Part shown: positions 5,961 through 63,018 of the stretch, in pieces | Numbering within the stretch: position 1 is the stretch's first letter | Layout: the number at the start of each line of letters is the position of its first letter | Assembly: GCA_963841935.1 (NCBI GenBank) | Contig: CAWJEP010000005.1 | Location: forward strand, 5,577 to 69,576 | Origin: an uncultured bacterium | GTDB lineage: Bacteria; Patescibacteriota; Minisyncoccia; Phycocordibacterales; UBA6065 | DNA length: 64,000 nt | Direction: 5' to 3' | Notes under the pieces: model-generated | The model's database searches: none | What the model was told of the DNA's origin: nothing | Seen by the model: only the letters and a program-made list of their open reading frames with translations | Made by a program: the position numbers and the translations under genes

Positions 5961-6038
5961 GAAAAAGCTATCCTCTTCTACGAATCTTTTGTGTCCTTTC
6001 CATTTTCCATATTTTATTTTTATTTCGAATCACTCATT

Positions 6039-7778: not shown

Positions 7779-7782
7779 TGCT

Positions 7783-8492
7783 TTATTTCTTTACGTAACA
7801 AATCATATCCTCTTCGGCGTCTTTGTGGAGTTTACAGACGTACTCGCCGCATATTTCTTTGAGCAATTTCGGGAGGTCGTATTTGTCGTCTTTATTGTGA
7901 TACGCGGACATCAAATTGTCGGTTTCCGATTTTTGAATCGTTTTTCGCGCGCCTTCGAGGATTTGCGCTTCGTATCCTTCGGTGTCTATTTTGATGAAAT
8001 CGACTCGAGATATTTTTTCTTTCTCGACGACGCGTCAATGGTCGTGACTTCCACTTGTTCCGTACCGTCGAAATATCTTTTATTTTTGAGCCGCAAGGGC
8101 GCTGTCCGTCATGGCATTCATTCCGGCGCGACCGGATACGGTGAGAATCTCTTGGTTTTTTCTTTTGCGCCGAGACCTTTGTTAAAAATTTTGATCTGGG
8201 GATAGTATTCGGAATTTTTTCGGAGAATTTCGTAAGTATTTTTTACCGGTTCGAAAGCGAATATTTTTCCTTGCGGAGAAAAGAGGGAAGCGAATATCGA
8301 AAAGATGCCGATGTTGGCTCCGGCGTCTATGGCAATTGAGTCTTTTGTAAGAAATCGTTTCGCTTTGTATTGGTCGGCAATCATTATTTCGTAAACCAAA
8401 GAAAAACGGTCGTCGCCGGAGATTTTTTCAAAAACGTCCGGATAATTTTTTTTCATAAACGAAGATATTTCTTTTTCCGATTCTTTTTTCAA
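7783..8492 (-). CDS. FkbM-family methyltransferase, interrupted by apparent frameshifts
   Basis: The N-terminus IDAGANIGIFSIFAS...FAFEP is in ORF 8118-8492. The C-terminus VDFIKIDTEGYEAQILEGARKT...MICYVKK* was translated by hand from the minus strand at 7783-8060, in another frame. Confidence 0.5.
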
Positions 8493-8664
8493 AAAATCCT
8501 CATAACGCGGTACGAGACCGACCGAGAAGGCGATATTTTTGCAGGAAGAACAAGTGAAACCGTTTCCCCAAAGGAAAACGCGCCCATTGAAAACGCCCTA
8601 AGCATCGCTTTTCGGTGTTGCATGAAATTTTTACTATTAACTGTTTTCGTGAACAACATATATG

Positions 8665-10046: not shown

Positions 10047-12464
10047 AGCTTTCTCGCTACTTCTTCTTGCCGTCGCGTGGGTTCTTTATGCCTTGGCCGC
10101 ACGCGGTTCCGCGAACAAGATTCTCGAGAGCGACTATTATTTTCGGAATCTTCGTCACGCCTTTCATTCCCATCATTGTCACGCCGTCATTGTTTTTTCC
10201 TTTCATCACCGGTAAGAATTTTCTTTTCAGAGCGTCGTCGAAATCATAACCGCCGCTTGGATAATTCTCTCTATTCGCTCTCCGGAATATCGTCCGAAAA
10301 AATCCGCAGTCTTTTGGGCCTTTTCGGCGCTCGCCGCGACGATGCTCGTGTCCACGTTTGTCGGCGCCGACCCGTTTCGAAGTTTTTGGTCCAATTTCGA
10401 GAGAATGGAAGGTTACGTGACTTTGATACATCTTTTCGCTTTCTTTCTCGTCGCCGCGAGCGTGCTTTTCCGCAGCAACGTCTGGAATCTTTTGCTCAAG
10501 ACGACTCTCGGCGTTTCCGTTTACATTTCTCTTTACGGCGTGCTTCAGCTTCTCGGATTTCTTACCATTAACCAAAGCGGCGTGCGTCTCGACGGAACTC
10601 TCGGCAACGCGGCTTATCTCGCGATATATTGCATATTTGCCATTTTCTTCGCCGGCATCCTCGCCGACTCGCGAAAAAGGTCTAAAGATTTCCCGTGAAG
10701 CCATGTGGTGGTCGGTGGGAGTCATCGGCTTTGCTCTTTTACTTTTTCTTTTCGGTTTGACCCAGACGACGATTTCGTCTCCCGTTACCGCGGCGCTTGT
10801 CGTCTCTCTTATAACGCTTTTGGGTATGTCTGCCGTGGTTTTGGCGAAAAAATATTCCGTTTCTTGGATTTACGCCGCCGTGGCTGTTTTGAATTTCGTC
10901 GTTTTGTATTACACGGCGACTCGCGGAGCGCTCCTCGGTTTTGCCGCCGGCGAATAATCCTCATGGCTCTCATCGTTCTCATTGCCAGAAAGGGAAGCAA
11001 GCTGATACAGAGGAGCGCTCTTTGGCTCATCGTTGTCGTGGTCATTGGCGCCGGCGGTTTCTTTGCTTTGAAAAACAGTTCGTTCGTAGAAAAAAGTCCG
11101 GTGCTTTCGCGTTTCGCTTCGATAAATCTTTCGGATTCGGAAACGACCGCGCGATTCTATATTTGGAATATGGCGTGGCAAGGATTTCTGGAGAAGCCGG
11201 TTTTTGGTTGGGGTCAGGAAAATTTCAATTTGGTTTTCAACAAATTCTACGCTCCTCAGATTTATTCCCAAGAGCAATGGTTTGACCGCACTCACGACAT
11301 ATTTTTTGACTGGCTTGTCACCGGAGGCATCGTCGGGTTCGTGGCCTATTTCTTTCTTTTCGGCGCGACACTTTTGCTCATCTGGAAAAACGCGGAAATT
11401 TCTTTCACGGAAAAAACCCTGTTCACCGGACTTTTCGCCGCCTATCTCGATCAATAATATTTTCGTTTTCGACAACATCACGAGTTTATTGCTTTACGTT
11501 ACTGTCTTGTCGTATGTGGCCGGCGTCGGCGGTAAGCCGTTTAAAAAATGGGGAAACGAGGAGTCGGCCGTTTCCGAAAAGACCATGAGGCGCGTGGTCG
11601 CGCCCATCGTCATCGTCGTCTTTCGCCGGCATTATATATTTGGTCAATTGGCCGGGATACATAACGTCTCGGGACGTCATCGGAGCTTTGTCCGCGATAA
11701 GCGAGAACAACGCTACGTCGTCCATCACGTATTTTGAATCGGCGGCGGGAGAAAACGCTCTCGGCCGCGAAGAGGTCACGGAACAAATCGTGGAAAACGC
11801 GCCGGCGATTATCAATTCCGGTAGCCGATTTGCAGACAAAGGAAGCGTTTGCCACTTTCGCCCAAAGTATCGTCGCGCGCCAATTATCCCAAACTCCAAA
11901 CGACGCCAGAGAGTGGCTTTTCGCCGGCAATTTCTACGCCGCCGTCGGTGAAAACAATTTGGCGGAAACCGCTTACCAAAACGCCGTGACGCTTTCCCCG
12001 AACAAACAGACGATTCTTTTCAGCCTCGGTTCGCAATATATACAGGATAAAAAATACGACCAAGCTCTTCGCCGTTTTCAAACAAGCTTACTATCTTGAC
12101 CAAAGCGACACCGAAGCGCTTGGAATGGTACGTCGCCGCCGCGATTTACGACGGTCAAGACGCTTTGGTGCCTCGGATCCTCGCCTCGACCACTCCAGAC
12201 GTGGCGCTTTCCGATACGATTGCCGGCGCCTATCTAAATACCAGCAATTGGCCGTCGAGCTCATCAAATTATTCCAAGACCGCATTCAAGTATTTGCCGG
12301 ACAACGTTCAGAACCATCTTTCGCTCGTGGCGGCGTACATGAAGATGAGTGAGACTAATGCCGCCGTCGCGGAAATCCAAAATATCATGAAGCTTTACCC
12401 GAGCTACGCCACGGTCGGCGCACAAGCTATAAAGGACATAGAATCGGGTAAACCTCTTCCATAA
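10033..12464 (+). CDS. O-antigen-ligase-like (Wzy_C) membrane protein with C-terminal TPR repeats, many apparent frameshifts
   Basis: TM-rich N-terminus from the ATG at 10033. RFYIWNMAWQGFLEKPVFGWGQENF is a Wzy_C signature. TPR-like repeats lie in 11734-12464. The reading frame changes at least 7 times. Confidence 0.45.
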
Positions 12465-12468
12465 GATT

Positions 12469-13551
12469 ATGAAAGAGAAAGTTTCTTTGTCGGAGATGAC
12501 GACTTTGAAAGTCGGGGGCTTTGCGAAGTATTTTTTTCGCGCCAAGACGGAAAAAGAAATTAAAGAAGCGGTAGAATTTGCTGCTCTCGGAAAAACTTCC
12601 GATTTTGGTTCTTGGGCGGCGGTTCAAATATTCTCGTAAGTGATGGAGGTTTTTCCGGCGCGGTAATAAAAATAAAAATGAAGGCGTGTCGTACGACCCG
12701 CCTGACGGCGAGGCAGGGGAAAAAGCGGCGCGGACGGACACGTCCGCGCCGCTGCCGGTGTTTCGTGGGACGCATTTGTTGCCGAAACCGTTTCTCGCGG
12801 ATTTTGGGGATTTGAAAATCTTTCCGGGATTCCCGGAACGGTCGGCGCGACACCAATTCAAAATATCGGCGCCTATGGCGCGGAAGCCAAAGACACAATC
12901 AAATCCGTCCGTGCTCTCGATATGAGAACAGGCGAAGAAAAAATTTTTGCCAACGCCGAGTGCCGGTTCGAATATCGAGATAGTTTTTTCAAAAGCGCCG
13001 AAGGCAAGAATTTTATCGTTCTCGAAGTCGTTTTTCGAGCTTTCGAAAGAACCAAAACCGAATATTTCGTACAAAGATTTACAAGATTTTTCGCAAAGAA
13101 AGATGGGCGGTTTTCGAGAGCGTAAGTCGGAGCGAAGCGCACAAACGAGAAAATGCCGCCTTCACTGGAAGAAATCCGCAAAGCCGTTCTCGAAATCCGT
13201 TCGAAAAAATTTCCCGACTTTTCGAAAGTCGGAACGGCAGGTTCGTTTTTCAAAAATCCAATTATTTCAGTCTCTAGGTTTGAAAAATTGAAGGCAAAAT
13301 ATCCGGAATTGCCGTTTTTCGCCGCGAAAGACGGCGTGAAAATTCCTCTCGCTTTTATTCTCGACAAAATCTGCGGGTTAAAAGGTTTCAAGAAGGGAAA
13401 TGTGGAGCTTTTCCAAAACCAGCCGCTCGTTTTGATGAATACTGGCGGCGCGACGGCAAAAGAAATTTCCGAATTCTCCGCGGAAATAAAAAAAGTCGTG
13501 AAAGAAAAAACTGATATTGGTATAGAGGAAGAAGTTGTATGCATATCATAG
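12469..13551 (+). CDS. murB: UDP-N-acetylenolpyruvoylglucosamine reductase MurB, interrupted by apparent frameshifts
   Basis: N-terminus MKEKVSLSEMTTLKVGGFAKYFF. GGGSNILVSDGGF (frame of 12612). RTGEEKIFANAECRFEYRDSFFK (frame of 12922). C-terminal GSFFKNP...CGLKG...LVLMNTGGAT (13153-13551). Confidence 0.65.
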
Positions 13552-14574: not shown

Positions 14575-17094
14575 ATGGCAAGCATATTCAAGAAGATGTT
14601 CGGTTCCGGCAGCGAGGCCGTTTTCGAAGCCACGAGACCTATAGTGGCGAAAATCAACTCTTTCGAAGAGAGGATTTTGCCGCTCTCGGATGAAGCTTTA
14701 CGAGGGAAGACTGAGGAGTTTAAGGAGCGGCTCGCCAAGGGCGAGCCGCTCGACGATATTTTGCCCGAAGCTTTCGCCGTTGTCCGCGAAGCCGCGAAAC
14801 GCACGCTTGGCCAACGACATTTCGACGTACAGCTTTCCGGCGGCATTGTTCTCCACCAAAAAAACATCGCCGAGATGAAAACCGGCGAAGGCAAGACTTT
14901 GGTCGCTACTTTGCCCGCGTATCTGAACGCTTTGACCGGCAAAGGTGTGCATATTGTCACGGTCAACGATTATCTCGCCGAACGCGACGCCGTATGGATG
15001 GGACAAATTTATGATTTTCTCGGGATTATCCGTCGGCGTCATCGCTCACGACGCTTCGTATGTCTACGACAAAAAACACAGTAGCGGCAAGGACTCGTGG
15101 CGACGACGGAGGAAGAGAAAGCGGCCTTTCACGTCGCTCACGAATTTCTCCGTCCCGTTTCGCGCCGCGAAGCTTACCACGCCGACATTACTTACGGCAC
15201 GAACAGCGAATTCGGTTTTGATTATTTGCGCGACAATTTGGAATACGTCGCGGAGCGATTTGCGCCAGCGCGAACCCAACTACGCCATTGTCGACGAAAT
15301 CGATTCGATTTTGATAGATGAAGCTCGCACGCCTCTCATTATTTCTGCGCCGTCGGGCGATAGCGAAGATTTTTACAAACAATTCGCCCGCATAGCGGCC
15401 GCGCTCAAAGAAGGCGAGGATTACGAAAAAGACGAGAAGCATCGCGCGGCGAATATGACCGAGGTCGGCATAACGAAAGCCGAAAAGATGCTCGGCATAG
15501 AAAATATTTACACCGAAAAAGGCATCAAATTCGTTCATCATCTCGAGACCGCCGTGAAAGCCAAAGCTCTTTATACCAAAGACAAAGAATATGTCGTCAA
15601 AGACGGAGCAAATAGTCATCGTGGATGAGTTTACCGGCCGCCTTCAGCCGGGCCGCCGCTGGTCGGAAGGTCTTCATCAGGCCATCGAAGCCAAAGAAAA
15701 TGTGCCGATTCAAAAGGAGACGAAAACTTACGCTTCCATCACTTATCAAAATTATTTTCGTTTGTATCCGAAAATTGTCAGGCATGACCGGCACGGCAAA
15801 AACTTCGGCCGAGGAATTCCGCAAAGTCTATCTTCTCGAAGTCGTGGAAATGCCGACTCATCGCCCCGTAGCGCGCAAAGACGCCAACGACTTGATTTTC
15901 CAGACCGAAAAAGGCAAGTTCCAAGCCATCATCCGCAAAGTAAAAGAATTAAACGCCAAAGGCCAGCCGATTCTCATCGGCACGGCGTCAATCGAGAAAA
16001 ACGAATTGCTCTCGGCGTATTTGAAGAAGGAAAATATTCGGCACGAAATGCTCAACGCCAAAAACCACGAACGCGAAGGCGAAATCATCGCTCAAGCCGG
16101 TCGCTATGCCGCGGTGACTATCGCGACCAACATGGCGGGTCGCGGCGTCGACATCAAACTTGGGCGGAAATCCGACAACCGAGGCCGATTATGAAAAAGT
16201 GAAATCCGCCGGCGGACTTTTCGTTTTAGGTACCGAGCGACACGACGCGCGTCGCATAGACAACCAGCTTCGCGGCCGCTCGGGCCGCCAAGGCGACCCG
16301 GGCGAAACGCAGTTTTTTGTCTCGCTTGAAGATTCTTTGATGCGGGTTTTCGCCAACGACATGATCAAAAATATGATGGGACGATTCGGCATTCCCGAAG
16401 ATGAAGCCATCGAGAACCGCATTATCACGAAATCTCTTGAAACGGCGCAGACGCGCATCGAAGGATTCAATTTTGACGCTCGAAAGCAAGTTTTGGAATT
16501 CGACGACGTGATGAATGTCCACCGCAAAACGATTTATGGCCGGCGAAGAAAAGTTTTGGTCGGCACGGACCAGGATGTTTGGAACGAATTTCTTTTGCTC
16601 GTTGACCAAAACGACGCCGAGTTTATGAAAAAGCTCGAAGATAAGAAAAAAGAAATGGGCGAGAAGAATTTTGTCCAAACGCTTCGAATGATTTATCTTC
16701 AGACCATAGATATGTTCTGGCTCGAACATCTCGAGGCCATGGACTATCTGCGCGGCTCGGTCAATTTGCGCGCTTACGGACAGCGCGATCCGCTTGTCGA
16801 ATACAAAAAAGAAGGCCTGCGACTTTTCCGCCAACTTGAGATTTCCATAAGTGGTCAGGTGGTGGATTTGATGACGAAGCTCGCGCCCGCCAAAGCCTGT
16901 GCTTTGGCGGGCGCCGCCGTGCCGGTAAATCCCGTCAGCTCCGGCGCACGAAACGGTCGGCAATTTCCGCTTCAGGCGACAAAGTCGGCAGGAACGACAA
17001 GGTAATGGTGGAAAAAAACGGCGAGAAAAAGGAAATAAAATTCAAGAAACTCGAAGAATACAAAAAAGACGGATGGAAAGTAATTGTTGACTAA
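14575..17094 (+). CDS. secA: Preprotein translocase ATPase SecA, interrupted by at least 4 apparent frameshifts
   Basis: [19 protein letters not shown] (Walker A region). [68 protein letters not shown]. The final 30 aa reach the stop at 17092-17094 in yet another frame. Confidence 0.8.
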
Positions 17095-23437: not shown

Positions 23438-24840
23438 GAAAACCTACAAACCCACAATCGGTCTGGAAATTCACGCGGAACTAAAGACGCGGACGAAGAT
23501 GTTTTGCGATTCGAAAAATGATGCCGATGAGACGCGACCGAACGTAAATGTCTGTCCGATTTGCATGGGTCATCCAGGAACATTGCCGGTCATAAACAAA
23601 GAAGCGGTCCGTCATGTTATTCGCGTCGGCGTTTCCGTCGGCGGAAAAATTGCCGACTTCACGGAGTTCGACAGGAAAAATTATTTTTATCCCGACATTC
23701 CGAAAGGCTATCAAATTTCGCAGTACAAATATCCCTTGGTAAGCGGCGGGGAATTAAACGGTGTCGCTCTCACGCGCGTACATCTCGAAGAAGACACGGC
23801 AAGCTCGACGCACGACACGGGGATTCCGCCTCGTCGGCGGATAAATTCTCGCTTGTTGATTTCAATCGCGCCGGAGTGCCTCTCATGGAGCTCGTGACCG
23901 AGCCGGTGATTCAATAGTGCTGAGCAGGCGGGAGATTTCGCCCGTGAGCTTCAATTCTTCTCCGATATCTCGGCGTCTCCGACGCGAACATGGAAAAAGG
24001 CGAGATGCGCGTCGAAGCGAACATTTCTGTAAGCGACAGCGACAAATTCGGCACAAAAGTCGAAGTCAAAAATCTAAACTCGTTTAAGGCCGTCGAACGA
24101 GCGATTGATTACGAAGTCAAACGCCACATCGAACTTCTCGAAAAAGGCGAGAAAATATCTCAAGAAACGCGCGGTTGGGACGAAGACAAAGGCAAGACAT
24201 TTTCCCAGAGACAAAAGGAAGATTCGCACGATTATCGCTATTTTCCGGACCCTGATTTGCCAAAGCTTAAAATATCGGAAATTCCCGAGAATTTCCGAAA
24301 AGGCAATAAAGAGAGAGCTTGCCGGACTTCCCTCGCAGAAACGGAACGTTACGCAAAGATTTCGGTCTCAAAGCCGCCGACATACACATATGTATCGAAT
24401 CCCGAGCTCGCGAAGTTTTTCGAAAGCGTCGCCGATGTTTGAAGAAAAAAGAATTGGTCGCGCTTGCGTCGAACTATATTATTTCTAACGATGCTTCGAA
24501 AATTTTGGCGACAATTTGGTGAAAATAATTTTGATGATTGAGAAAGGCGAACTCTCGAGTCGCGGAGCGAAAGATTTGATCACGAAGCTTTTTGAAAAAG
24601 AAGGCGATGCAGAAAAGTGGCTAGAGGAAAATAATCTTTTGCAAGTGAGCGACACGGGAGCACTCGAAAAAATCGCGCAGATAATAATTTCCGCGAATCC
24701 GACCGTCGTCGCGGATTTCAAAAACGGAAAAAGCCGCGTTTCAATTTTTCGTGGGGCAGGGAATGAAAGAAACGAAAGGCAGCGCCGACCCGAGTGAACT
24801 CGCCAAGGCGATTAAAAAAATTCTTTCGGAAATAAAATAA
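23438..24840 (+). CDS. gatB: Asp/Glu-tRNA amidotransferase subunit B (GatB), interrupted by several apparent frameshifts
   Basis: [16 protein letters not shown]...[42 protein letters not shown]-terminal GatB/YqeY-like [19 protein letters not shown]. Confidence 0.8.
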
Positions 24841-25409
24841 TGGAAACCAAATTTTCATGGAAGAAAATATTTTTTATTCTCGTCATACTTCTTGTTTTGG
24901 TCGGAATAGTTTCCGCTTTGGAAAAAACGGCGGCTTCGAACTCGGCGTTTCCGTCTCTCGAAAACTCGCTTCGCTCAAACATTCTCGATACGGAAACGCC
25001 TCCTTCTGCGCAGACGCCGAATTTGTCATATGCAACAACAACGATTACCACTCCAAACGGTACTTTTGTCGCCCAGATAGCCGACACTTTGGACAAACAA
25101 GTGCAAGGGCTCTCCGACAGGACGAGTTTGCCGGAAGGAACCGGTATGATTTTTGTTTTTTCTTCTCCCGCCATCCAATATATGTGGATGAAGGATATGA
25201 ATTTTCCTCTCGATATGGTTTGGCTCGACCAAAATAAAAAAGTTACTTACATCGCGGCCGATGTGACGCCGGAAACGTATCAAAAAAATCCTCCGGAGAT
25301 ATTTTTTTCGTCGACGCCGTCTCTTTACGTCATTGAATTGCCAAATGGCGACGCTTCGAGGCTTCACATCACTCTCGACTCGTTGCTTTCTTTTGAAACT
25401 ACTCCGTAA
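24840..25409 (+). CDS. DUF192-domain protein with N-terminal TM anchor
   Basis: QGLSDRTSLPEGTGMIFVFSSPAIQYMWMKDMNFPLDMVWLD matches the DUF192 core. Confidence 0.55.
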   Translation: METKFSWKKIFFILVILLVLVGIVSALEKTAASNSAFPSLENSLRSNILDTETPPSAQTPNLSYATTTITTPNGTFVAQIADTLDKQVQGLSDRTSLPEGTGMIFVFSSPAIQYMWMKDMNFPLDMVWLDQNKKVTYIAADVTPETYQKNPPEIFFSSTPSLYVIELPNGDASRLHITLDSLLSFETTP

Positions 25410-36174: not shown

Positions 36175-36250
36175 GCCGAGATAGCTCAGTTGGTAGAGCG
36201 TCCGCCTGAAGAGCGGTAGGTCCCCGGTTCGACCCCGGGTCTCGGCACCA
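36175..36250 (+). tRNA. tRNA-Phe (anticodon GAA)
   Basis: GCCGAGA/TCTCGGC acceptor. D-stem GCTC/GAGC. Anticodon loop CUGAAGA. T-arm CCCGG-TTCGACC-CCGGG. 3' CCA is encoded. Confidence 0.75.
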
Positions 36251-36252
36251 AA

Positions 36253-36711
36253 TTACGACGACTTAACTTTTAGTTTGTTCTGCTTGGCTTTGTTTATTTT
36301 GGCTAGGCGAATGGTGAGCAGGCCGTTTTTTTCCGTGGCTTCCGATTCATCCACGTCTATTTCTTCAGGCAATGTCACCGTGCGGGCGAAAGTGCCCCAA
36401 TAGAGTTCTTTGTGGTAATAATCTTTTTCTTCGACTTCGGAGGACGCTTCGCGCGTGCCTTTTATGGAAACCATCGAGCGAGTGATGTCGATGTCGAGAT
36501 TTTCCGGACGAATGCCGGCCACCATGGTTTTCACTATAATTTCCGTCGGCGTGTTGTAGACATCGACAGGAAGTTCGCCGTCCACGGCATCTTCATCAAG
36601 TAGAACTCCTTCGCGCTCTTCCTCGACCGATTCATTCAAATCCAAATCATCCTCGTCGGCCTTGACGGTGCCGGTCAGTCGCTCGAAAAAAGATCTTTTT
36701 TGTTTGCTCAT
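36253..36711 (-). CDS. Hsp20/alpha-crystallin family small heat-shock protein
   Basis: Alpha-crystallin domain pattern (VDVYNTPTEIIVKTMVAGI ... LPEEIDVDESEATEKNGLLTIRL). Confidence 0.75.
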   Translation of the reverse strand: MSKQKRSFFERLTGTVKADEDDLDLNESVEEEREGVLLDEDAVDGELPVDVYNTPTEIIVKTMVAGIRPENLDIDITRSMVSIKGTREASSEVEEKDYYHKELYWGTFARTVTLPEEIDVDESEATEKNGLLTIRLAKINKAKQNKLKVKSS

Positions 36712-37419: not shown

Positions 37420-39588
37420 TTATTTTGGCCAATTTGAAATCATAAGCGGCAATTTTTCTTCGCGCGGCCTGCCTGCCGGCGAGGCAGGCAAATCTTTCCA
37501 GATTTCTTCCGTGATGAAAGGCATGAAAGGATGGAGGGCTCGGATTGAGTTTTCCAAAATATAAATAAGCATATATTTTGTCGAAACATCGCCTTTGGAA
37601 ATCTTTTCTTTGCTCACTTCGATGATTTTGTCGGCGAATTCGTGCCAGACATAAGCGTAAAGTTTTTCTCCCGCCATATAAAATCTGAAATTCTCCATAT
37701 CTTCCGTCATGTCGGCGATAATTTTTTCGAAATCGGAGATTATTTTTTTGTCGTCAGTCCGAGAGCATCGGTTTTTTCGAGTAATCCCGCAAAATTTTCC
37801 GTCGAAGTCAAAACGAAACGCGCGATGTTCCAGAGTTTGTTGCTGAAATTTTTGTAGCCTTTGATTTTGTTTTCACCGAGCTTGCTGTCGTTGCCCGGAC
37901 CCGTGCCGATGATGAGACTCATGCGCACGGCATCGGCGCCGTATTTTTTCGCCATATCCACAGGGTCGATATTGTTGCCGAGCGATTTGCTGATTTTCCT
38001 GCCTTGCTCGTCGCGCACGATGCCGTGGAGATACACTGTGTGAAAAGGTATGTCGCCGAGAAGGTAAGTGGACATGAGAATCATTCTAGCCACCCAAAAA
38101 GGCAAAATGTCGTAGCCGGTTTCTAGAATAGTGGTCGGATGATAGGTTTTTAGGTCGTCCGTTTGGTTCGGCCAGCCAAGGGTCGAAAACGTCCATAAAC
38201 CCGAAGAAAACCACGTATCTAGCGTATCCTCATCTTGAGCCCAGCCGTCGCCTGTAGGGGCATTTAAACCGCAATAGACCTCGTTTTTTCGGTACCAGAC
38301 GGGCACTTGGTGGCCAAACCATATCTGACGGCTTATACACCAATCGCGCAGGTTATAAATCCAATGCAAATAGACTTTTTCGAACCTGTCGGGAAGGATT
38401 TTTATTCCGTCTTTGAGCACGGCTTTTTTCATTAAATCCTTGAGAGAAACTTTTTTTAGACCCCTTCGGAATTTTTTGTTCACGTCGATGAACCATTGGA
38501 GTTTCGGTAAGGGTTCGAATGATGCCTCCCGTACGCTGCGCCGTCGCCACATTCTGAGGAACTTCTTCTTCTTTTTCCAAAAGTCCTTCGGCTTTCAGCC
38601 ATTCAACGACTGACGTCCGTGCGTCGACGACTTTTTTGTCTTTGAGCAATTCTGGCGACTCGACCGACATCTTGGCGAATTCATTTATGATTTGTTTGGA
38701 GGGCAAATGATGTCGCGTCGGCGATTTCGGCGTCGACGTGGCTATGCGCCGGAGTGACGCCGACCGCGCCGGTACCGAAATCTTTGTCGACTTCACGGTC
38801 GGCGACAATTTTTTATGGATTTTTTCTCCGGCAAAAACGATATCGTATTCCGTGCCCACAAATTTCGTGTATCGTGCGTCGTCGGGATGAACGGCGACAC
38901 CTGTGTCGCCGACTTTCGTCTCCGGTCTAGTGGTGGCGATGGCGACGGAAAGTCTTTCGAATATTTGAAAGTGTAAAGTTTTGCCTTTGCCTTCCGTATA
39001 AACTATTTCGTCGTCGGAAATAGTCGTCTGGCCTTTCGGATCCCAATTGACGATTCGATTTCCGCGATAAATCAAACCGTCATCGTACATTTTTTTGAAA
39101 GCAGTGCGCACGGCAAGCTCACGCTTTTCGTCGAGAGTGTAAGCTTCACGGCTCCAGTCGACGGACGCGCCGAGCTTTTTCACCTGTTCCACGATGGCAT
39201 CGTGGCTCTCCCGCGCGAATATTTCTATGCGGCGCACAAGCTCGGCGCGTCCTAGGTCATGCCTTCGTTTGCCTTCTTTTTTATAAATTTCGCTTTCCAC
39301 TTTCGATTGCGTGGCGATGGCGGCGTGGTCGGTTCCGGGAACCCAAAGAGTTTTGTATCCTCTCATTCGCGCGTAACGCACCATTATATCCTCGATGGCG
39401 AGCATGAGGGCACTTCCCATGTGGAGGATTCCCGTGACATTTGGCGGCGGCAGGACTATGGAAAAAGGTTTTTTGTGTCGTGCCGGCAAGTTGTCAGGAT
39501 TAAAATATCCGGACTTTAACCAATCGGAATAGATGGCGTCCTCGGTGGCGTTCGGGTCGTAAGGTTTGAGGTATTTTTCCGGTATCAT
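37420..39588 (-). CDS. valS: Valyl-tRNA synthetase, short form without C-terminal coiled-coil, interrupted by apparent frameshifts
   Basis: PPPNVTGILHMGSAL (HIGH region), then KISKSLGNNIDP (KMSKS) in ORF 37740-38552. Anticodon-binding tail in 37420-37710. Confidence 0.8.
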
Positions 39589-41073: not shown

Positions 41074-41107
41074 ACGATGACAATTCTCAATTGTACCGAG
41101 TGTTGTT

Positions 41108-41147
41108 CTTTGCGTGTAAAATTGGTACACCAATTTTACACGCAAAG
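41108..41147. repeat. Perfect 19-bp inverted repeat (palindrome) with a 2-nt spacer
   Basis: CTTTGCGTGTAAAATTGGT ac ACCAATTTTACACGCAAAG. ORF 41091-41285 across it is probably spurious. Confidence 0.7.
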
Positions 41148-41276
41148 ATAGTCGATGTCAATAGAAAAGTTGAAATTTCGAATGCCAGTAATAGTTTTGA
41201 TGTACCTGATATAAATGATTTTCTAGAAAACATACGAATATTACTTAAGTATATTATATCAGAAAATCGTAAGAAA

Positions 41277-42415
41277 TCAAAATGACATATTTCCCTCCGC
41301 GCCGAAATCTTTTTCGTTTTTTCCGCCTCCTCGGCGGATTTTGAAATAACCGGCGAGAGCAATCATCAGAGGCGTTGTCGGTCGCGTGGGACGTGTGAGG
41401 CAAATAGAGAGGAATATCGTAAGTCGCGGCGAGTTTTTGGAGGAGCGAACGGATGAAAGTATTGGCGATGACGCCACCACCGGCGACTAGTGATTCGGCG
41501 CTATATTTTTCTATGGCTTTTTCCATTTTTCCGATGATGACGTCGGTAATGGCTTCTTCTATTTCGCGGGCGTATTTTTTCATATCGTCTTGCGAAAGTT
41601 TTTTGTCTTTGGTCGCGTAAAGGACGGCGGTTTTCAGTCCCGAGAAAGAAAAGTCTAGGTTGTCGGTATCGAGCATCGGGCGAGGAAGTGGATTTTCCAA
41701 TTTCAAATTTTCTTTTCGCGCCTCTGCGGCGAGTTTGGAGATTTCCGGACCGCCCGGATAGGGAAGTCCGAGCAGGCGAGCCGATTTGTCGAAACATTCG
41801 CCGACGGCATCGTCGCGCGTCTTGCCGACGATTTCGTATTTGCCGAATTCACGCATCAAGACTATTTCCGTGTGACCGCCGGAGATGAGAAGGGCGAGAG
41901 AAGGGAATTCGCGGCACGGTGAAAGCAAAGCTTTCGCCGTGCCCGTCCGCCGATGAGGTGGACTTTTTCAAAAGAGCCGCGACAATGTGACCTTCCATAT
42001 GGTTCGCGGGAATGAGGGGAACATTCCATTTCTTCGCGAGCTCTTTTGCAAATGTGATGCCCGTCCACAGACACGGCTCTAGCCCCGGCCCCTGAGTTAC
42101 CGCTATGGCGGTCACGGGCGCGGCGGAGGAAGTGGCGGACGTCTCGCTTGTGCGCTTCGCTAAGACTACGCGCTCGCCGCCCGCCACTTCCTCCGCCGCT
42201 TTAGATAAAGCTTTTTGGAGGATCGGCTCCAAATTTTTCTCATGCTCTCTTTTCGCCAGATTGGGGAAAACACCGCCATAGGGGCGGTGAAGTTCTATTT
42301 GCGAGAGGATTTCGTTGGCGAGGATTTTCACGGACACGCCATTTTCGTTTTCCTCGATATCCAAAATGGCTATCGCCGTCTCGTCGCAAGAGGTCTCGAT
42401 TCCCAATATTTTCAT
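41277..42415 (-). CDS. tsaD: tRNA N6-adenosine threonylcarbamoyltransferase TsaD (Kae1/Gcp), interrupted by apparent frameshifts
   Basis: MKILGIETSCDETAIAIL. ISGGHTEIV (41254-41928 frame). The C-terminus LMIALAGYFKIRRGGGK is in frame 41277-41480. Confidence 0.75.
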
Positions 42416-47597: not shown

Positions 47598-48485
47598 ATG
47601 GGAGCGCTTATCACAAAATTTTTAACGCCGTTCCTTCTAATCCTCGTTTTTGCCGTAGGCGCCTATGAATTTGGTGAAAGACATCCCATAGCTGCGCCGA
47701 CCGTTTATTACAGTCTCGATGCGAAGCAAAACGACCAGCAAATCATAAGCGTCATTGGAAATGCCCATAAATATATTTATTTCGCTATTTACGAATTTAC
47801 GAAAGATAATATAGCGCAAGCTCTAATCGCCGCGAAGGAAAAGGGAATAGATGTCGAAGGTGTTTTGGATAGAGACAATTCCACGGCCGCCGAAGAAGCG
47901 CCGATAGTCAAAGAGCTCGAGGCGGCGGGAATAAAAATCGAAACTCAAATTCATACTGACGGCATAATGCATATCAAAGCGATAGTTACCGACAACGAAT
48001 ACGCTTCGGGAAGCTACAATTGGACGGCGTCGGCCACGAATGTAAACGACGAGATTTTGGAAGTCGGCACGGACGAAAACACGCTCGAGCAGTACCAAAA
48101 CATTTTGAAAAATCTTTTGTCTGTGAACGCGACTGGAGCAGGCACACCGGCGTACGAGGACCTGAGCAAAGCGCCCGCAGTAGCCGGTGTGCCTGCGGAA
48201 GGAGCGATTGATTATACAGATGCCAAAAACCACATCGGCGAAACGACTGCGGTAAGCGGACAAATAGAACGCGTTTACATATCTTCGAGTGGACAAGTTT
48301 TCTTTGACTATTGTTCCAATTACAAGACTTGTCCCTTTAGCGCCGTGATTTTTGCCGACGACGCGAAGAATTTCACGGACGTATCGCAATACGAAGGTGA
48401 GACTATCACGGTTACCGGCCCCGTAAAAAGTTACAATGGAACTCCGGAAATAGTCATTTCCTCGCCGGACCAGATTTCCAAGTAA
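47598..48485 (+). CDS. Secreted phospholipase-D-family (HKD) nuclease-like protein
   Basis: N-terminal signal/TM. HIKAIVTDNEYASGSYNWTASA fits HxK(x)4D(x)5GSxN. Extra C-terminal domain. Confidence 0.6.
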   Translation: MGALITKFLTPFLLILVFAVGAYEFGERHPIAAPTVYYSLDAKQNDQQIISVIGNAHKYIYFAIYEFTKDNIAQALIAAKEKGIDVEGVLDRDNSTAAEEAPIVKELEAAGIKIETQIHTDGIMHIKAIVTDNEYASGSYNWTASATNVNDEILEVGTDENTLEQYQNILKNLLSVNATGAGTPAYEDLSKAPAVAGVPAEGAIDYTDAKNHIGETTAVSGQIERVYISSSGQVFFDYCSNYKTCPFSAVIFADDAKNFTDVSQYEGETITVTGPVKSYNGTPEIVISSPDQISK

Positions 48486-52788: not shown

Positions 52789-53184
52789 TCAAATGCCGAA
52801 TTGTTTTCGGATTTTTCGTTCTTGTCTCTCCATTGTAGCCCCATGTCGCATTCCTTTCAAATGACAAAGACCGTGGATAAACAGGTACGAGAGGTAATTT
52901 GAAAACGGGCGCGCGAAAAGGCGCGCCTTTTCGCGCGCCGCGCTCTTGCATATGAAAATCTCGCCGGCATTTTCTTCAAGTTCGAAACTCAAAATGTCGG
53001 TGGCGTAATCTTTGCCGCGGTATTTTTTATTCGTCTCCCGCATTTTCTTCGGACCGATGAAAGCCAAAGAAAGGTCATAATCTTTTCCAAGCACGGCGTT
53101 TTTTGCCAAATGAAAAAAGCGGGCATTTTCTCGCTTGTGCGCTTCGCTCCGACTTACGCGCTCGAAAATGCCCGCTTTTTTCAT
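52789..53184 (-). CDS. ybeY: rRNA maturation endoribonuclease YbeY (start codon uncertain)
   Basis: DILSFELEE and the zinc motif HGLCHLKGMRH. The annotated ATG at 53184 lies inside a 21-bp hairpin arm. An alternative TTG start is at 53109. Confidence 0.7.
   Translation of the reverse strand: MKKAGIFERVSRSEAHKRENARFFHLAKNAVLGKDYDLSLAFIGPKKMRETNKKYRGKDYATDILSFELEENAGEIFICKSAAREKARLFARPFSNYLSYLFIHGLCHLKGMRHGATMERQERKIRKQFGI
53110..53184. repeat. Hairpin element copy 1: 21-bp perfect inverted repeat around a 33-nt loop with a conserved 29-nt core
   Basis: ATGAAAAAAGCGGGCATTTTC [TCGCTTGTGCGCTTCGCTCCGACTTACGCGCTC] GAAAATGCCCGCTTTTTTCAT. A-run upstream and T-run downstream. Confidence 0.75.
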
Positions 53185-53439
53185 TTACTTACGGCCGCGG
53201 CCTTTTCTTTCTTCAGGTTTCAATTTTCCTTGTTTGATGAGAGTGGCTTTGGTTTCGGCGCGTTCGTTGAGTGTTAGGCGGCTTCTCTTTACTTTGAAAT
53301 GTGACTGGGTGCGGGTGTTGTAGCGGATAGAACGGACGCGAGGCAATATGCCGGAGCCCTGAACTCTTTTCGTAAATCTGCGGAGAATCGAAAGGGCGTT
53401 CTCCGTCGCGTTTTTCGTGACTTCCACGTTTGTTGCCAT
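53185..53439 (-). CDS. rpsU: 30S ribosomal protein S21
   Basis: 84 aa, basic. ...ALSILRRFTKRVQGSGIL...RSRL... is the S21 pattern. Confidence 0.75.
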   Translation of the reverse strand: MATNVEVTKNATENALSILRRFTKRVQGSGILPRVRSIRYNTRTQSHFKVKRSRLTLNERAETKATLIKQGKLKPEERKGRGRK

Positions 53440-53489
53440 AGAGCGATAAGTCTAAATGATATTGGTAAAAAAGTCAAAACTGGCCGTAT

Positions 53490-54722
53490 TTAGGCGATTC
53501 TGTGGATTTTTATGTATTTGGCCAAATCTTTTATGAAGACTGTTTCTTGGGCGCGAGTGCCGTTGTGGCGGACGATGACGCTATCCTCCATTGCTTCTTT
53601 TTTGCCCATAATAATGACGTAGGGACTTTTCATATATTCGGCCAAGGACACTTGTCCGGCCATTTTGTCGCGGGCGAGGGCGTGAGAGACCGGCACGCCG
53701 GCGAGACGCAGAGTCTCGATAACCGCGAGCGATTTGAGCTTGGCTTCATAGCCGAGCTGCATAAAGCAGATATTCGGTCGCGAAAGTTTTTTGGCTTTTG
53801 CCTGCGTCAGAACGTGCCGCTCTTTCGAGGGGTACGCGACGGAGACGCCGGCGGCCATTACTTCTTTTTTGTTGCCGAGTTTTTTCGCCAAGGTGTCGTA
53901 TCGAACTCCGACGGCCAAGGGATGGTCTTTGGGATTTCCCGTCCGAATTTCGAAAACCGTTTCCGAACAATAATCGCGGTTGGCGACCAGGGTGTTTTTT
54001 ATTTCATAAGGAATTTCTAGACATTCGACAAATTCCAAAATTTCTTTGAATCGGCCGCGGCTTTCTTCCGATAGAAAGTTGATGGCTTTCGGGCAATCGG
54101 CCGAAAGCTCGACGCATTTCTCGTGCGTGCAACCGAGAAGCGAAAACGGGTCTTTTTTGAATTTCTCTTTGCAAGTCGCCGGCAAATCGGCGAGATGTCG
54201 GCGGTAATAGGCGGTGAGCTCTCGGCCGAAGCGCGCGGTGGATTCTTTGTCGCCGATGGAATTGATTTCAAGATGAAGGTCGGAGTATCCGACCTTGGAA
54301 AGAAGGGCGAGCGCCGTTTTGATAAGCATAGCTTCGGCGATGGATCTATTCGTGCCGAGAATGTCGAATGAATGATGGGATTCTTTCGAGCTCAACTTTG
54401 TCCTGTCATTTTTGAAAGGCCTAACGGTGGAAATCATCACGGGCTGGGGTTCTCGAAAAAGATTGTATTCTTCGTATAGACGAATGAGAGAGATTTTTTC
54501 TTCAAGCTTGGTCCACGCTCCGCCGTCATGGCTGTCGCTGTCGACGACTATTTCTCCATCGGAAATTTTCTTCGCCGCCGCGATGTCGGATGGCGTGATG
54601 GACGGCACGTTTATCGGCGTGAAGCCGTAATAAAGTCCCACCTCGTGGCCAGTCGAAAGATGCGCGGTGGCGGTAATATCGGCAAGACTCCTCTTTTTTT
54701 CTTTCGGCGTGCGATCGCTCAT
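53490..54722 (-). CDS. hisS: Histidyl-tRNA synthetase-like class II aaRS, with divergent catalytic motifs
   Basis: HLEINSIGDKES and LSEESRGRF...DYCSETVFE align to HisRS. HisRS-type anticodon-binding domain YVIIMGKKEAMEDSVIV. Motif 1 and 2 positions read IRLYEE and FREPQPVMISTVRPF. Confidence 0.6.
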   Translation of the reverse strand: MSDRTPKEKKRSLADITATAHLSTGHEVGLYYGFTPINVPSITPSDIAAAKKISDGEIVVDSDSHDGGAWTKLEEKISLIRLYEEYNLFREPQPVMISTVRPFKNDRTKLSSKESHHSFDILGTNRSIAEAMLIKTALALLSKVGYSDLHLEINSIGDKESTARFGRELTAYYRRHLADLPATCKEKFKKDPFSLLGCTHEKCVELSADCPKAINFLSEESRGRFKEILEFVECLEIPYEIKNTLVANRDYCSETVFEIRTGNPKDHPLAVGVRYDTLAKKLGNKKEVMAAGVSVAYPSKERHVLTQAKAKKLSRPNICFMQLGYEAKLKSLAVIETLRLAGVPVSHALARDKMAGQVSLAEYMKSPYVIIMGKKEAMEDSVIVRHNGTRAQETVFIKDLAKYIKIHRIA

Positions 54723-54726
54723 ATAA

Positions 54727-55305
54727 TTATTCGCTGAAATGGACGTCACCCGGACGAGCGGCTAAGGTCGATACGGGCAAGAGACGGAAAAGCGGAGTGC
54801 CGACGATATCGTTTGCCGGCACCGGCCCCCAAATGCGCGAATCAGAGCTGACCATCCTGTTGTCGCCCATGACGAAATACTGGCTAGGGCCGAGAGTTAC
54901 CGTCTCTTCGCCCAGCGTTTCGCCTTGGGCGTAAGGTTCGGAAAGAACGAAACCGTCAGGGTGCGAAATATTTTTTATTGTCACAGTGTTGTCGCTAACG
55001 ACGACCGTATCGCCGGGAAGGCCGATGACTCGTTTGATAAAATATTCGCTCGGGTCGAGAGGATATTTGAATATCATGACGTCGCCTCGATTTGGCGTGC
55101 CAAGCTCGTAAGAAAGCTCGTCAATGATGAGATATTGTCCATTGGCGAAAGTCTTGTCCATGGAATCGCCGGAAACGACGAACGGCTGGGCTATCCAAAG
55201 ACGGATAGGGACGACGATGACGAGAGCAATGACGGCGTAGATGAGGACTTCTTTTATGAAAGAGCCGGATTTCTTGGCGGGCGGAGTATTTTCCATGCGC
55301 GTCAT
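54727..55305 (-). CDS. lepB: Signal peptidase I
   Basis: SGDSM (catalytic Ser), KRVIGLPGD and GDNRMVSSDSR motifs. ATG chosen at 55305. Confidence 0.75.
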   Translation of the reverse strand: MTRMENTPPAKKSGSFIKEVLIYAVIALVIVVPIRLWIAQPFVVSGDSMDKTFANGQYLIIDELSYELGTPNRGDVMIFKYPLDPSEYFIKRVIGLPGDTVVVSDNTVTIKNISHPDGFVLSEPYAQGETLGEETVTLGPSQYFVMGDNRMVSSDSRIWGPVPANDIVGTPLFRLLPVSTLAARPGDVHFSE

Positions 55306-55328
55306 TATACACGAAACGCTCGATAAGC

Positions 55329-55403
55329 AAAACAAAGTGGCGATATTTTTTGCTTGTGCGCTTCGCTCCGACTTACGCGCAAAAAATATCGCCACTTTGT
55401 TTT
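55329..55403. repeat. Hairpin element copy 2: 23-bp perfect inverted repeat around a 29-nt core identical to copy 1
   Basis: AAAACAAAGTGGCGATATTTTTT [GCTTGTGCGCTTCGCTCCGACTTACGCGC] AAAAAATATCGCCACTTTGTTTT. It lies 24-25 nt upstream of both the lepB and the pth start codons (divergent genes). Confidence 0.75.
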
Positions 55404-55427
55404 TTTATTTCGTGCTATGATTTTTTT

Positions 55428-61710: not shown

Positions 61711-63018
61711 ATGAGTAAATTCCAAGTCATTCTTCTCGCCGTATTCGTACTTCTAGCCGTCATCGGCGTTTTCGTATTCGCCACCTCTTCCTCAAATCAA
61801 AGCGCCGCCTTGGTGCCCATCACAATCTGGGGCACGCTTCCGCAAGCCGATATGACGGCTGCAATAGACGATTTGGAAAACGCCGACAAGACGACTTTCG
61901 AGGCGAGCTACACTTACGTGGACGAAGCGGATTTTCAATCAAAGCTGGTCAACGCCATCGCCACGGGACAAGGACCAGACATAGTTTTAATTCCGCAGGA
62001 TATTTTCCTCTCGGTAAAAAATCTTCTTTACCCGATTCCTTACGCCGATTATTCGCAGAGACTTTTTGAAGACAATTTTGCCCAAGCCGGAGAAATATTT
62101 CTCGACCCAACGTCGGGTATTTACGCGTTGCCGGTAGCCATTGACCCGATGGTGATGTTTTGGAACAGGAATTTGCTTTCTTCGGCCGGCATCGCCCTGC
62201 CGCCAAAAACATGGACCGACCTCTTGGCCGAAGTGCCGAAACTTACGGCGAAAGACGCGAACGGCAACTTGACGGCTAGCGCCGTGGCTTTCGGCGAATG
62301 GACGAATGTGCCGCACGCTAAAGATATTCTCTCGATGCTCATGCTTCAAAGCGGCTCGCCGATAGTTTCGGCCGACCAGACTACGGGCAAGCTTTCCGCC
62401 GCGCTTCTTGAAAGTAATTCTTCCGGCATCATGCCGTCCGCCGAAGCCCTGAATTTCTTCACACAGTTCGCCGACCCGTCGAAAGACGTCTATTCTTGGA
62501 ATCGCGCCCTGCCGTCCGCCGACTCGGCGTTTCTCGCGGGGCAACTGGCGTTTTACTTCGCGCCGGCCAGCGAAACATCCACGCTGCGAGCCAGGAACCC
62601 GAATCTCAATTTTGACGTCGCGGAAGTTCCGCAGACCGGCACGACTTTGGCGGGAACTTTCGCCGATGTCTACGCTTTCGGACTTTTGAAAAGCTCACCG
62701 AATCTTTCCGCTGACATTTTGGACGCCAATCTTTTGACGGGAGATAAGGCCGCCGCGGATATATCCGCGGCGGCCGCGGTCGCGCCGGCGCGGCGCGACC
62801 TTCTCGCGCAGACTCAATCATCCGCCTATCAAGCTATTTTCTGGCAGTCCGCCTTGATTGGCGAAAACTTTCTCGACCCAAATCCCGTCGCGACAGACTC
62901 TTTGTTCGAGCAAATGGTAGAATCGGTGACATCCGGAGCCAAGAGCGCCGCCGACGCAGTAAACTCCGCCGATGGCTCTCTCGGAACGCTTATCCGCGCC
63001 GCCGAGCAATCTCAATAA
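61711..63018 (+). CDS. Extracellular solute-binding protein (ABC transporter SBP, family-1-like)
   Basis: N-terminal TM/signal. 435 aa. GQGPDIVLIPQD and WTDLLAEVPKLTAKD are typical of sugar-type SBPs. No permease or ATPase genes follow within the window. Confidence 0.55.
   Translation: MSKFQVILLAVFVLLAVIGVFVFATSSSNQSAALVPITIWGTLPQADMTAAIDDLENADKTTFEASYTYVDEADFQSKLVNAIATGQGPDIVLIPQDIFLSVKNLLYPIPYADYSQRLFEDNFAQAGEIFLDPTSGIYALPVAIDPMVMFWNRNLLSSAGIALPPKTWTDLLAEVPKLTAKDANGNLTASAVAFGEWTNVPHAKDILSMLMLQSGSPIVSADQTTGKLSAALLESNSSGIMPSAEALNFFTQFADPSKDVYSWNRALPSADSAFLAGQLAFYFAPASETSTLRARNPNLNFDVAEVPQTGTTLAGTFADVYAFGLLKSSPNLSADILDANLLTGDKAAADISAAAAVAPARRDLLAQTQSSAYQAIFWQSALIGENFLDPNPVATDSLFEQMVESVTSGAKSAADAVNSADGSLGTLIRAAEQSQ

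Follow-up and report, generated by a model that had tools for sequence, protein, structure and literature searches.

A family of palindromic repeats with a constant centre and variable arms in a clade of Patescibacteria

The window analyzed here, a stretch of 64,000 nucleotides from an uncultured member of the Patescibacteriota (GenBank assembly GCA_963841935.1, contig CAWJEP010000005.1, forward strand), contains two long hairpins, one at the junction of rpsU and ybeY and the other in the spacer between lepB and pth, which share an identical 29-nt core. These hairpins belong to a previously undescribed, lineage-specific repeat family of a clade of Patescibacteria (Candidate Phyla Radiation, CPR; Paceibacterota-like), and elements of this kind in CPR bacteria did not come up in full-text literature searches. 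The element is a small palindromic interspersed repeat of an unusual, inverted architecture, with a constant loop and free arms, and includes one well-documented case of inverted target duplication. In all, it is probably a non-autonomous palindromic mobile repeat, the arms of which are maintained, and in at least one case were made, by snap-back or template-switch synthesis.

Two hairpins with the same core and the repeat family to which they belong

The two hairpins (copies 1 and 2; core variant A1) consist of the following parts.

53108-53130, + strand: left arm of copy 1, AAATGAAAAAAGCGGGCATTTTC, forming a perfect 23-bp inverted repeat with 53164-53186
53131-53163, + strand: unpaired centre of copy 1, 33 nt, consisting of TC, the 29-nt core A1 (exact 29-mer) and TC
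53164-53186, + strand: right arm of copy 1, overlapping the rpsU stop codon (53185-53187) and containing an ATG (53182-53184)
55329-55351, + strand: left arm of copy 2, AAAACAAAGTGGCGATATTTTTT, part of a perfect 25-bp inverted repeat (55329-55353 and 55379-55403)
55352-55380, + strand: 29-nt core A1 of copy 2, the terminal GC of which joins the stem, so that a 25-nt loop remains
55381-55403, + strand: right arm of copy 2, a perfect inverted repeat of the left arm

The original prediction, made from the letters of the window and a list of its open reading frames (ORFs), that the same 29-mer occurs twice in the same orientation, each time inside a perfect inverted repeat, is borne out: a search of the window finds exact matches to GCTTGTGCGCTTCGCTCCGACTTACGCGC at 53133-53161 and 55352-55380, both on the + strand and both between complementary arms, whereas the number of matches expected by chance, estimated from shuffles of the window, is 0. 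The span first given for the core of copy 1, 53131-53163, is that of the 33-nt unpaired centre, and the 29-mer itself is shorter by 2 nt on each side. The stems are indeed perfect, unrelated to each other in sequence, A-rich at the 5′ end and T-rich at the 3′ end, but their lengths, first given as 21 and 23 bp, are 23 bp for copy 1 and 23-25 bp for copy 2 (25 bp, 23 of them outside the 29-mer). The gene coordinates agree with the described placement relative to rpsU, ybeY, lepB and pth. The distance from copy 2 to the start codon is 23 nt on the lepB side (ATG at 55303-55305) and 25 nt on the pth side (ATG at 55429). In copy 1, an ORF starting from the in-frame ATG in the right arm runs through the element into ybeY, with a TTG at 53107-53109, and the rpsU/ybeY mRNA, transcribed from the - strand, bears the reverse complement of the centre, GAGCGCGTAAGTCGGAGCGAAGCGCACAAGCGA. 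On either strand, both copies are predicted to form stable folds, at -41 to -46 kcal/mol (z-scores between -6 and -9.5).

For comparison with the window, related loci and contigs (denoted L001-L066) were retrieved. A search with the exact 21-nt middle of the core, GCGCTTCGCTCCGACTTACGC, identifies nine occurrences in one fragmentary metagenome-assembled genome (MAG) from the species-representative genome set, whereas the others are spread over 44 metagenome contigs that stem from only a few sampling projects, with none in viral contigs. The 59 occurrences represent 49 distinct contexts, in a related Patescibacteria MAG and in wetland metagenomes. Tabulation of the flanks in these related genomes, a check proposed along with the original prediction, proves decisive: in 48 of the 49 contexts, the flanks pair with each other and differ from those of other copies, contrary to the possibility that the core occurs in many places without flanking inverted repeats. 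The single exception (L017) is probably a chance or unrelated match. The two hairpins were thus correctly described as a single element, constant in its centre and with arms unrelated between copies, that is not assignable to a recognized family: a permissive Rfam search of the region detects no family at threshold, only generic hairpin matches to microRNA precursor models (22-31 bits vs thresholds of 70-117).

Throughout the family, TC-core-TC is constant, and the arms vary between copies but pair within each copy. Among 50 distinct copies, counting outward from the core, positions 1-2 (TC/TC) are unpaired, positions 4-8 are conserved (ATTTT/AAAAT), positions 9-14 are variable and G/C-rich, and positions 15-23 are variable, A-rich on the left and T-rich on the right. 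In the variable part, pairing per position is 80-96% within a copy, compared to 24-46% between copies. A gap-free alignment of 39 copies has 94.9% of its cells in standard pairs, compared to 56.5% after shuffling, and none of 500 shuffles reaches the observed value; two-sided changes are found at 21 of the 22 paired positions, and sliding the partner by 1-3 columns reduces pairing to about 50%. The stems are 16-33 bp long (median 23), and the units span 65-95 bp. Therefore, the conserved unit is an asymmetric segment of about 45 nt, yATTTTyTC-core-TCrAAAATr, of which 33 nt are unpaired, and in the arms, pairing is conserved but sequence is not.

Variants of the core were searched for with nhmmer and a covariance model. 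Among 11 loci fetched independently, via neighboring proteins, six cores are identical to the 21-mer and the rest carry 1-8 changes (variants A2, A3, A3′ and A4). The named homologs of TsaD, the HisS-like protein and Alr come from Parcubacteria, Paceibacterota or Taylorbacteria, by which the host is judged to be one of the Patescibacteria, although the related MAG is labelled Saccharibacteria.

With the covariance model, exactly four copies are identified in the window, about one per 16 kb: copy 1 (98.8 bits for 53107-53187), copy 2 (87.1 bits for 55326-55406) and the two copies below, which the original prediction did not include; lower matches are generic hairpins.

42120-42199, + strand: copy 3, with GC-rich arms of 19-22 bp around core variant A2 (GCTTGTGCGCTTCGCTAAGACTACGCGC), in frame in tsaD (- strand) as AAEEVAGGERVVLAKRTSETSATSSAA; 63.1 bits
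13103-13163, - strand: copy 4, decayed, with 2 core mismatches and arms of about 5+5 bp, separating the N-terminal part of murB from its C-terminal domain; 53.9 bits

The A2 variant of copy 3 recurs in frame in rsmE of L020. At copy 4, the match to MurB_C begins at residue 7 of an ORF that starts from an ATG within the arm of this copy.

An assembly, adapter or vector artifact, or else an rRNA or tRNA fragment, has a negligible probability as the source of the repeat. The one observation that could be cited in its favor is the 652-nt contig L065, which is chimeric exactly at the core: it tracks tsaD up to an A2 core and continues into unrelated sequence, without a complementary arm. In all likelihood, L065 is a chimera created when the repeat was assembled. 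It shows that the repeat can break short-read assemblies, and it was excluded from the tsaD comparison. Otherwise, the copies are syntenic in independent NCBI, ENA, JGI and Logan assemblies made with different assemblers, show natural sequence variation and in-frame reading, and match nothing in Rfam (at gathering thresholds, the related loci yield tRNAs only) and nothing beyond chance in phage and plasmid collections.

Filled and empty orthologous sites

Syntenic loci were obtained via orthologs of the HisS-like gene located between copies 1 and 2, with protein identity from 92% to 71%. Among close relatives, a given orthologous site either has the whole hairpin or lacks it, and the core occurs in either orientation. 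The rpsU-ybeY junction lacks the entire hairpin in L053, L058 and L062, whereas a hairpin is present in the window (A1), in L057 (A3′), in L054 (A3, in the opposite orientation), in L059 (A2-like, with other arms) and in L061 (A2-like, with arms and flank as in the window). In the empty relatives, the ybeY ATG overlaps the rpsU stop codon (TAATG), and the YbeY N-terminus is a short segment (MPEIKNA- in L053), which in L058 and L062 leads into -VLGK-Y[DE]L. The copy in the window adds 25 in-frame codons directly behind the ATG, and only from residue 27 does the protein match the Pfam family YbeY. Judging from the N-termini of the relatives, the ATG at the rpsU stop is the ancestral start of ybeY; in the window, as in the ambiguity first noted for this start, ribosomes may read through the element or restart at the TTG. 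This case also shows how the repeat confuses start codon annotation.

In the lepB-pth spacer, a hairpin is present in every relative that shares this gene order, but the arms differ. Relative to the window, L053, L054 and L057 have the core inverted, and L058 and L061 have it in the same orientation, with arms that are different as well. A hairpin of another type, with arms AATATTCCGAGGACAGTCCTC and loop GGGAAATTTCTCT, occupies this spacer in L022 (2014-2068) and is located upstream of lepB in L062, where a remnant of an L053-type element, namely its right outer arm (CGATTTTATTTTGT), comes next; this arrangement suggests successive replacement at one site. In L059/L060 (288-1769; an 83% relative), pth is separated from lepB by genes similar to pyrF and pyrE, and there is no hairpin upstream of lepB, which is a local rearrangement adjoining the element site.

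Other sites display the same polymorphism. The flanks of the filled/empty pair L032 and L016 are 96% identical. The convergent genes tig and rsmE overlap in L020, which is empty, and are separated by hairpins of opposite orientation in L018 and L048; upstream of rsmE, L030 carries the element, L018 a plain hairpin and L020 neither. The window itself contains an empty site.

36251-36255, no strand assigned: empty site, the spacer that separates tRNA-Phe (36175-36250) from the stop codon of hsp20; filled by an A hairpin in L011 and by a composite element, C(A), in L003/L047

Altogether, empty alleles without any hairpin were found at seven orthologous sites. In the pairs L043/L026, L048/L020 and L020/L030, a plain GC-rich terminator occupies the position of the element, and its stem is unrelated to the element arms.

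Origin of the arms

Some arms are shared by copies at unrelated loci. The arm of copy 1 (GAAAAAAGCGGGCATTTTC), found also at the orthologous site in L057 and L061, has a counterpart in L011, downstream of hsp20. Another arm, ACAAAATAAAATnnCGTATTTTT, is present in L032 (downstream of holB), in L012 (at a different locus) and in both L053 and L054 (in the lepB-pth spacer). In every case, the sequences flanking the arms at the different loci are unrelated. Arms thus also travel with the element, i.e., they can be inherited with it, given that copies at loci unrelated to each other have identical or near-identical arms.

At one locus, alr, an arm can be traced to the target. The Alr protein of the filled allele (L001, and likewise P0242 from the window's own genome) reads ...LQAV[ARQGAVFERVSRSEAHKRKN]GTLPR..., compared to ...LKT-ATLPRESS... 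in the orthologs that lack the element, and Alr homologs down to 52% identity all keep this region at the same length, which argues against the empty alleles being deletions that left one arm behind. In the DNA, the empty alleles are GCAACCCTGCCGCGC (L063) and GCCACCCTGACGCGC (L064), with the native sequence GC(A/C)ACCCTG(C/A)CGCGC, and the filled allele (L001) is GCGCGGCAGGGTGCC - gtttttga - core - gaaaaaat - GGCACCCTGCCGCGC, with an insert of 63 nt. Thus, the downstream arm is native coding sequence, and the upstream arm is a perfect inverted copy of it that was added together with the 45-nt unit.

At other loci, a target origin is only suggested. The downstream arm of copy 3 in tsaD encodes residues that align with the native sequence of a relative, and the outer ends of several arms include native features whose complement lies opposite. 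At ybeY, this feature is ATG...CAT; in L011, it is the stop codon of hsp20, and in L053, it is the left flank of the lepB spacer. The relative in the tsaD comparison (L066, 1501-2199; 72%) carries a different palindromic insert in the same tsaD loop as copy 3, ...MAARYSGGYVERDGARPSDSPAGEYASSEKPAAM..., with outer arms ATGGCGGCA/TGCCGCCAT that use the same native GCCGCC. In an alignment of CPR TsaD proteins, many have insertions of variable length at the point of copy 3.

The A hairpin is also found inside larger modules. Module B (TCGAGGACCGAACCCGCAGC ... GCGTGAGGGCGCTTGCGTTYCGCAG) is bracketed by its own variable outer inverted repeats and contains an A hairpin nested in the centre in L006 (5801-5971), L013 (3420-3560), L019 (1-130 and 2518-2678), L021 and L046; L040 (4984-5086) has B alone, with only a mini-hairpin, GCGCC-AAA-GGCGC, in the middle. 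The two halves of B resemble direct repeats of a GAGGRC...YCGCAG unit. Module C (CCTGGAAGCCACTCSGG ... ATCSSTCGGCGA) likewise combines variable outer arms with a nested A hairpin (L003, 150-265, and L034, 1067-1202), and in L003 it fills the hsp20-tRNA spacer that is empty in the window. Homologous arms can enclose different loops. At the rsmE site, these are A2 in L020 and a B′-type loop in L018 (1399-1475), with only the ends GAGCG...GCGA in common; at rpsU-ybeY, they are A1 in the window, A2 in L061 and A3′ in L057.

These observations bear on an alternative under which only the constant centre (33-45 nt) is mobile and homes into the tips of existing hairpins, so that the arms belong to the resident hairpin. 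Such homing is compatible with the mean design of the copies (an A-run, a GC-rich stem, the 45-nt unit, a GC-rich stem and a T-run), with the many plain perfect terminator palindromes in these genomes, with the A hairpin at the centre of modules B and C, and with the different loops within homologous arms at rsmE and rpsU-ybeY. Against it, the seven empty sites have no hairpin at all, the stems in the three pairs of a plain terminator and a filled site are unrelated, the second arm in alr did not pre-exist the insertion, identical arms appear at unrelated loci, and pre-existing perfect palindromes of 15-26 bp within alr, comEC, polA, tsaD and rsmE are implausible. Taken together, homing of the centre alone appears quite unlikely. 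The corresponding proposal of the original prediction, insertion into the loops of existing terminators, fails on the empty sites, the unrelated stems and the alr arm, and finds a partial echo in the nesting within modules and the loop swaps within homologous arms.

Gene context and in-frame copies

Many copies are located a few nucleotides after a stop codon or between convergent genes, and others between divergent genes or inside ORFs. The combination of A-run and T-run flanks with a GC-rich stem segment is common among the copies. By position and shape, the intergenic copies are probably bidirectional terminators, and at some gene ends, ordinary terminators have probably been replaced by the element.

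In-frame copies are present in at least eight genes, including those for Alr, ComEC, a SAM (S-adenosylmethionine) methyltransferase, PolA (in two genomes), RsmE, TsaD and YbeY, and in murB, the decayed copy lies between the two domains. In the centre, five of the six reading frames are open. In eight of the nine robust intragenic copies (given that the census of gene orientation rested on crude ORF calls, only copies within long ORFs were trusted), the mRNA carries the reverse strand, which encodes a hydrophilic peptide, ...ERVSRSEAHKR..., whereas the forward strand of the centre encodes Cys/Leu-rich peptides. The simplest reason for this bias is peptide tolerance, and intragenic copies likely survive when the added hydrophilic peptide (...FERVSRSEAHKR...) is tolerated. 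The tiny genomes of CPR bacteria are commonly considered to contain little mobile DNA; in this window, a dense repeat remodels gene ends and adds peptides to essential enzymes (Alr, PolA, TsaD, RsmE and YbeY).

The gene context also bears on the hypothesis that the hairpin is a host-selected cis signal, i.e., a terminator or processing hairpin with a loop that binds a protein or RNA and a stem that is a substrate of RNase III, its duplication being incidental. Several features are in line with such a signal: at orthologous sites, the core is far better conserved than the arms; many copies stand right after stop codons or between convergent genes in place of ordinary terminators; and the mismatches in the stems are mostly G.U-compatible on the GAGCGCGTAAGTCGGAGCGAAGCGCACAAGCGA strand, the one borne by the mRNA in eight of the nine robust intragenic copies. 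However, the core has opposite orientations at orthologous sites and is oriented about 50:50 relative to transcription in intergenic co-directional contexts, copies are located between divergent genes and in at least eight protein genes, presence differs among close relatives, no covariation supports a fold within the loop, Rfam contains no match, and the intragenic bias follows more simply from the encoded peptides. Hence a selected signal seems improbable as the origin of the repeat. Accordingly, a structured RNA with a functional loop, the other reading offered by the original prediction, is unlikely as the primary nature of the element in view of its orientation, in-frame copies and polymorphism, whereas a secondary role in termination or processing is plausible.

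Proposed mechanism and points against it

Template switching at inverted repeats is known to create hairpins in one step, to homogenize arms and to invert spacers (PMC8794818, PMC8604942, PMC7202029). This general mutational process (quasipalindrome mutation) would account for the inverted native copy in alr, the perfect arms and the loop flips, but leaves unexplained the spread of one 45-nt centre over dozens of loci. On the preferred reading of the hairpins as a mobile repeat, new copies would arise via a single-stranded, hairpin-forming intermediate. Once the centre is copied, the nascent 3′ end would snap back on the inner stem (ATTTTC/GAAAAT), copy about 15-20 nt of the adjacent flank and return to the original template. 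The snap-back would thereby add an inverted duplicate of the target and yield a perfect, locus-specific stem; later, the same template switching would keep the arms perfect and could invert the loops. The centre would remain constant owing to its requirement by the copying or recognition machinery.

A bolder version holds that the centre of about 45 nt is the sole heritable part and that the terminal repeats are made at integration itself, by inverted duplication of about 15-20 nt of the target, in one strand-specific step that involves a hairpin intermediate (DNA or RNA) and a dedicated enzyme. This version is tentative and, on balance, unlikely. We know of no described counterpart to inverted target duplication at integration: known transposons make direct target duplications or none. 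Should the inverted target duplication prove to belong to integration, the mechanism of the element would be new. In any case, the family offers a natural system to study the birth of hairpins by snap-back synthesis, may indicate a new route of DNA mobilization, and is a potential strain-level marker for these uncultured lineages.

Several observations weigh against the preferred reading. At orthologous sites, the core stays constant while the arms diverge, which could mean host-level selection on the core; if the copies were purely selfish and old, they would be expected to include more decayed cores. The set collected with the 21-mer is biased to intact cores by the exact-match search. No direct target-site duplication is present beside the hairpin in any of the comparisons of filled and empty sites, and no target consensus was seen. 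At the DNA level, target-derived arms are documented at one locus only, alr; for copy 3 in tsaD and for the outer arm upstream of lepB, the evidence of a target origin is only suggestive. No transposase, reverse transcriptase or other mobilizing gene was identified among the few proteins scanned. Furthermore, arm mismatches are strand-asymmetric: with the core in the + orientation, A.C mismatches number 20 and G.T mismatches 6 (p about 0.009; 16 vs 3 in a set checked by hand). The strand with GAGCGCGTAAGTCGGAGCGAAGCGCACAAGCGA thus keeps wobble-compatible stems, and the orientation relative to genes, being mixed, is not the explanation. The asymmetry points to a strand-specific single-stranded form, but is not predicted by simple snap-back. 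Finally, a simple terminator scan does not call the element sites, ignoring them because of the large loop (25-33 nt vs the short loop of 3-8 nt in the consensus).

Comparison with known systems

[quoted passage not shown] Correia-type MITEs form hairpins cleavable by RNase III, can invert and affect neighboring genes (PMC10969869). In a MITE, however, the ends are conserved and matched to a transposase, the interior is variable and a direct target-site duplication is formed, whereas here the ends vary, the interior is conserved and no direct duplication was seen. The family was therefore not assigned to classical MITEs: the copies are short and dispersed, but only the 5 nt of the arms that adjoin the centre are conserved among them, so that neither conserved terminal inverted repeats nor a direct target-site duplication was found.

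A further close parallel is provided by the Rickettsia palindromic elements (RPE), small palindromic repeats of a reduced genome, without an associated transposase, that are often found in frame in unrelated housekeeping genes and add a peptide to the product (PMC10969869). The present element is similarly in frame in alr, comEC, polA, rsmE, tsaD, ybeY and a methyltransferase gene. The RPE are about 100-150 bp long and conserved throughout, in contrast to the conservation of the central 33-45 nt only in the present family; the host phyla differ (Rickettsia vs Patescibacteria), and many of the copies described here are terminator-like and located at gene ends. Membership in the RPE sequence families was rejected on the different host and the conservation of the centre only, which set the element apart from the description of RPE.

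The pneumococcal SPRITE repeats form a duplex of about 18 bp with AAAA/TTTT ends, are enriched at gene 3′ ends and between convergent genes, have no known target-site duplication or parent insertion sequence, and were possibly co-opted as terminators (PMC3049150). The putative likeness lies in the terminator-like shape, the A/T-run ends, the location of many copies at 3′ ends and between convergent genes, and the lack of a visible target-site duplication or parent insertion sequence; copies also lie in other contexts, and the gene calls behind this census were crude. Unlike the present family, SPRITE is described by a sequence hidden Markov model over the whole repeat, is not reported in frame, and has no design of constant loop and variable stem and no evidence of target-derived arms.

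In logic, the constant loop as a recognition site and the strand asymmetry fit the systems of REP (repetitive extragenic palindromic) sequences, IS200/IS605 and the HUH origins, although this is a resemblance and not membership. In REP/REPIN-RAYT, IS200/IS605 and HUH origins, a hairpin in single-stranded DNA is recognized mainly by its structure together with a short conserved motif, the stem may vary, and there is no target-site duplication. REP sequences have sequence-conserved arms and a 5′ GTAG, are extragenic and are linked to a RAYT gene. A REP/REPIN identity was rejected given that the arm sequence is not conserved here and that several copies are intragenic. No Y1/HUH gene turned up, although no systematic search for one was made.

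Other identities were considered and set aside. In L019 and L007, a transposon bounded by two inverted copies was sought, and the interior encodes no transposase but RsmI, a hydrolase, Nudix and nitroreductase-like proteins and the product of one unknown ORF. For a fold inside the loop (GCGC/GCGC stem, GCG-AAG-CGC mini-hairpin), there is no consistent covariation among the core variants A1-A5. A host signal similar to uptake sequences, Chi, dif or parS does not fit the density, the hairpin context and the intragenic copies. Finally, the copies are not CRISPR repeats: they are solitary and kilobases apart, each with self-complementary flanks, and form no regular array.

Related hairpins and other features of the window

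Two further hairpins in the window resemble the modules described above or the element itself.

48136-48198, no strand assigned: B′-like hairpin with 14-bp arms and loop GTACGAGGACCTGAGCAAAGCGCCCGCAGTA (CGAGGAC...CCGCAG), in frame in the ORF 47598-48482
24934-25010, + strand: weak short relative with arms GGCGTTTCCGTCTCTCGAA/TTCTCGATACGGAAACGCC and a loop with CTCGCTTCGCTC, in frame in the ORF 24840-25406; 17.5 bits, E 0.07

The first of these hairpins, translated in frame as GAGTPAYEDLSKAPAVAGVPAE, has the loop CGAGGACC...CCCGCAG and can be compared to L018 (1399-1475) and to the B module of L006, L013, L019 and L040. An orthologous copy of the second is present in L032 (11953-12021).

Plain perfect palindromes with arms of 14-20 bp, loops of 0-4 nt and no conserved centre are located at 41107-41148, 52908-52939, 16883-16914 and 62748-62775. 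These resemble ordinary bidirectional terminators, and in some relatives such hairpins occupy positions where others have the element. An inverted repeat at 39163-39252, with perfect arms of 15 bp (22 nt at 86%) and a 46-60-nt spacer, is unrelated to the A core.

Several genes of the window appear to be broken. The tsaD gene is split into two overlapping ORFs (41254-41928 and 41849-42415), murB (12096-13551) looks fragmented, with a frame change at the decayed copy 4, and the region 3900-9000 contains only short ORFs over several kilobases. These may be true pseudogenes or indel errors of long-read assembly; L057, from an assembly with contigs named "contig_", likewise has split hisS-like and ftsZ genes.

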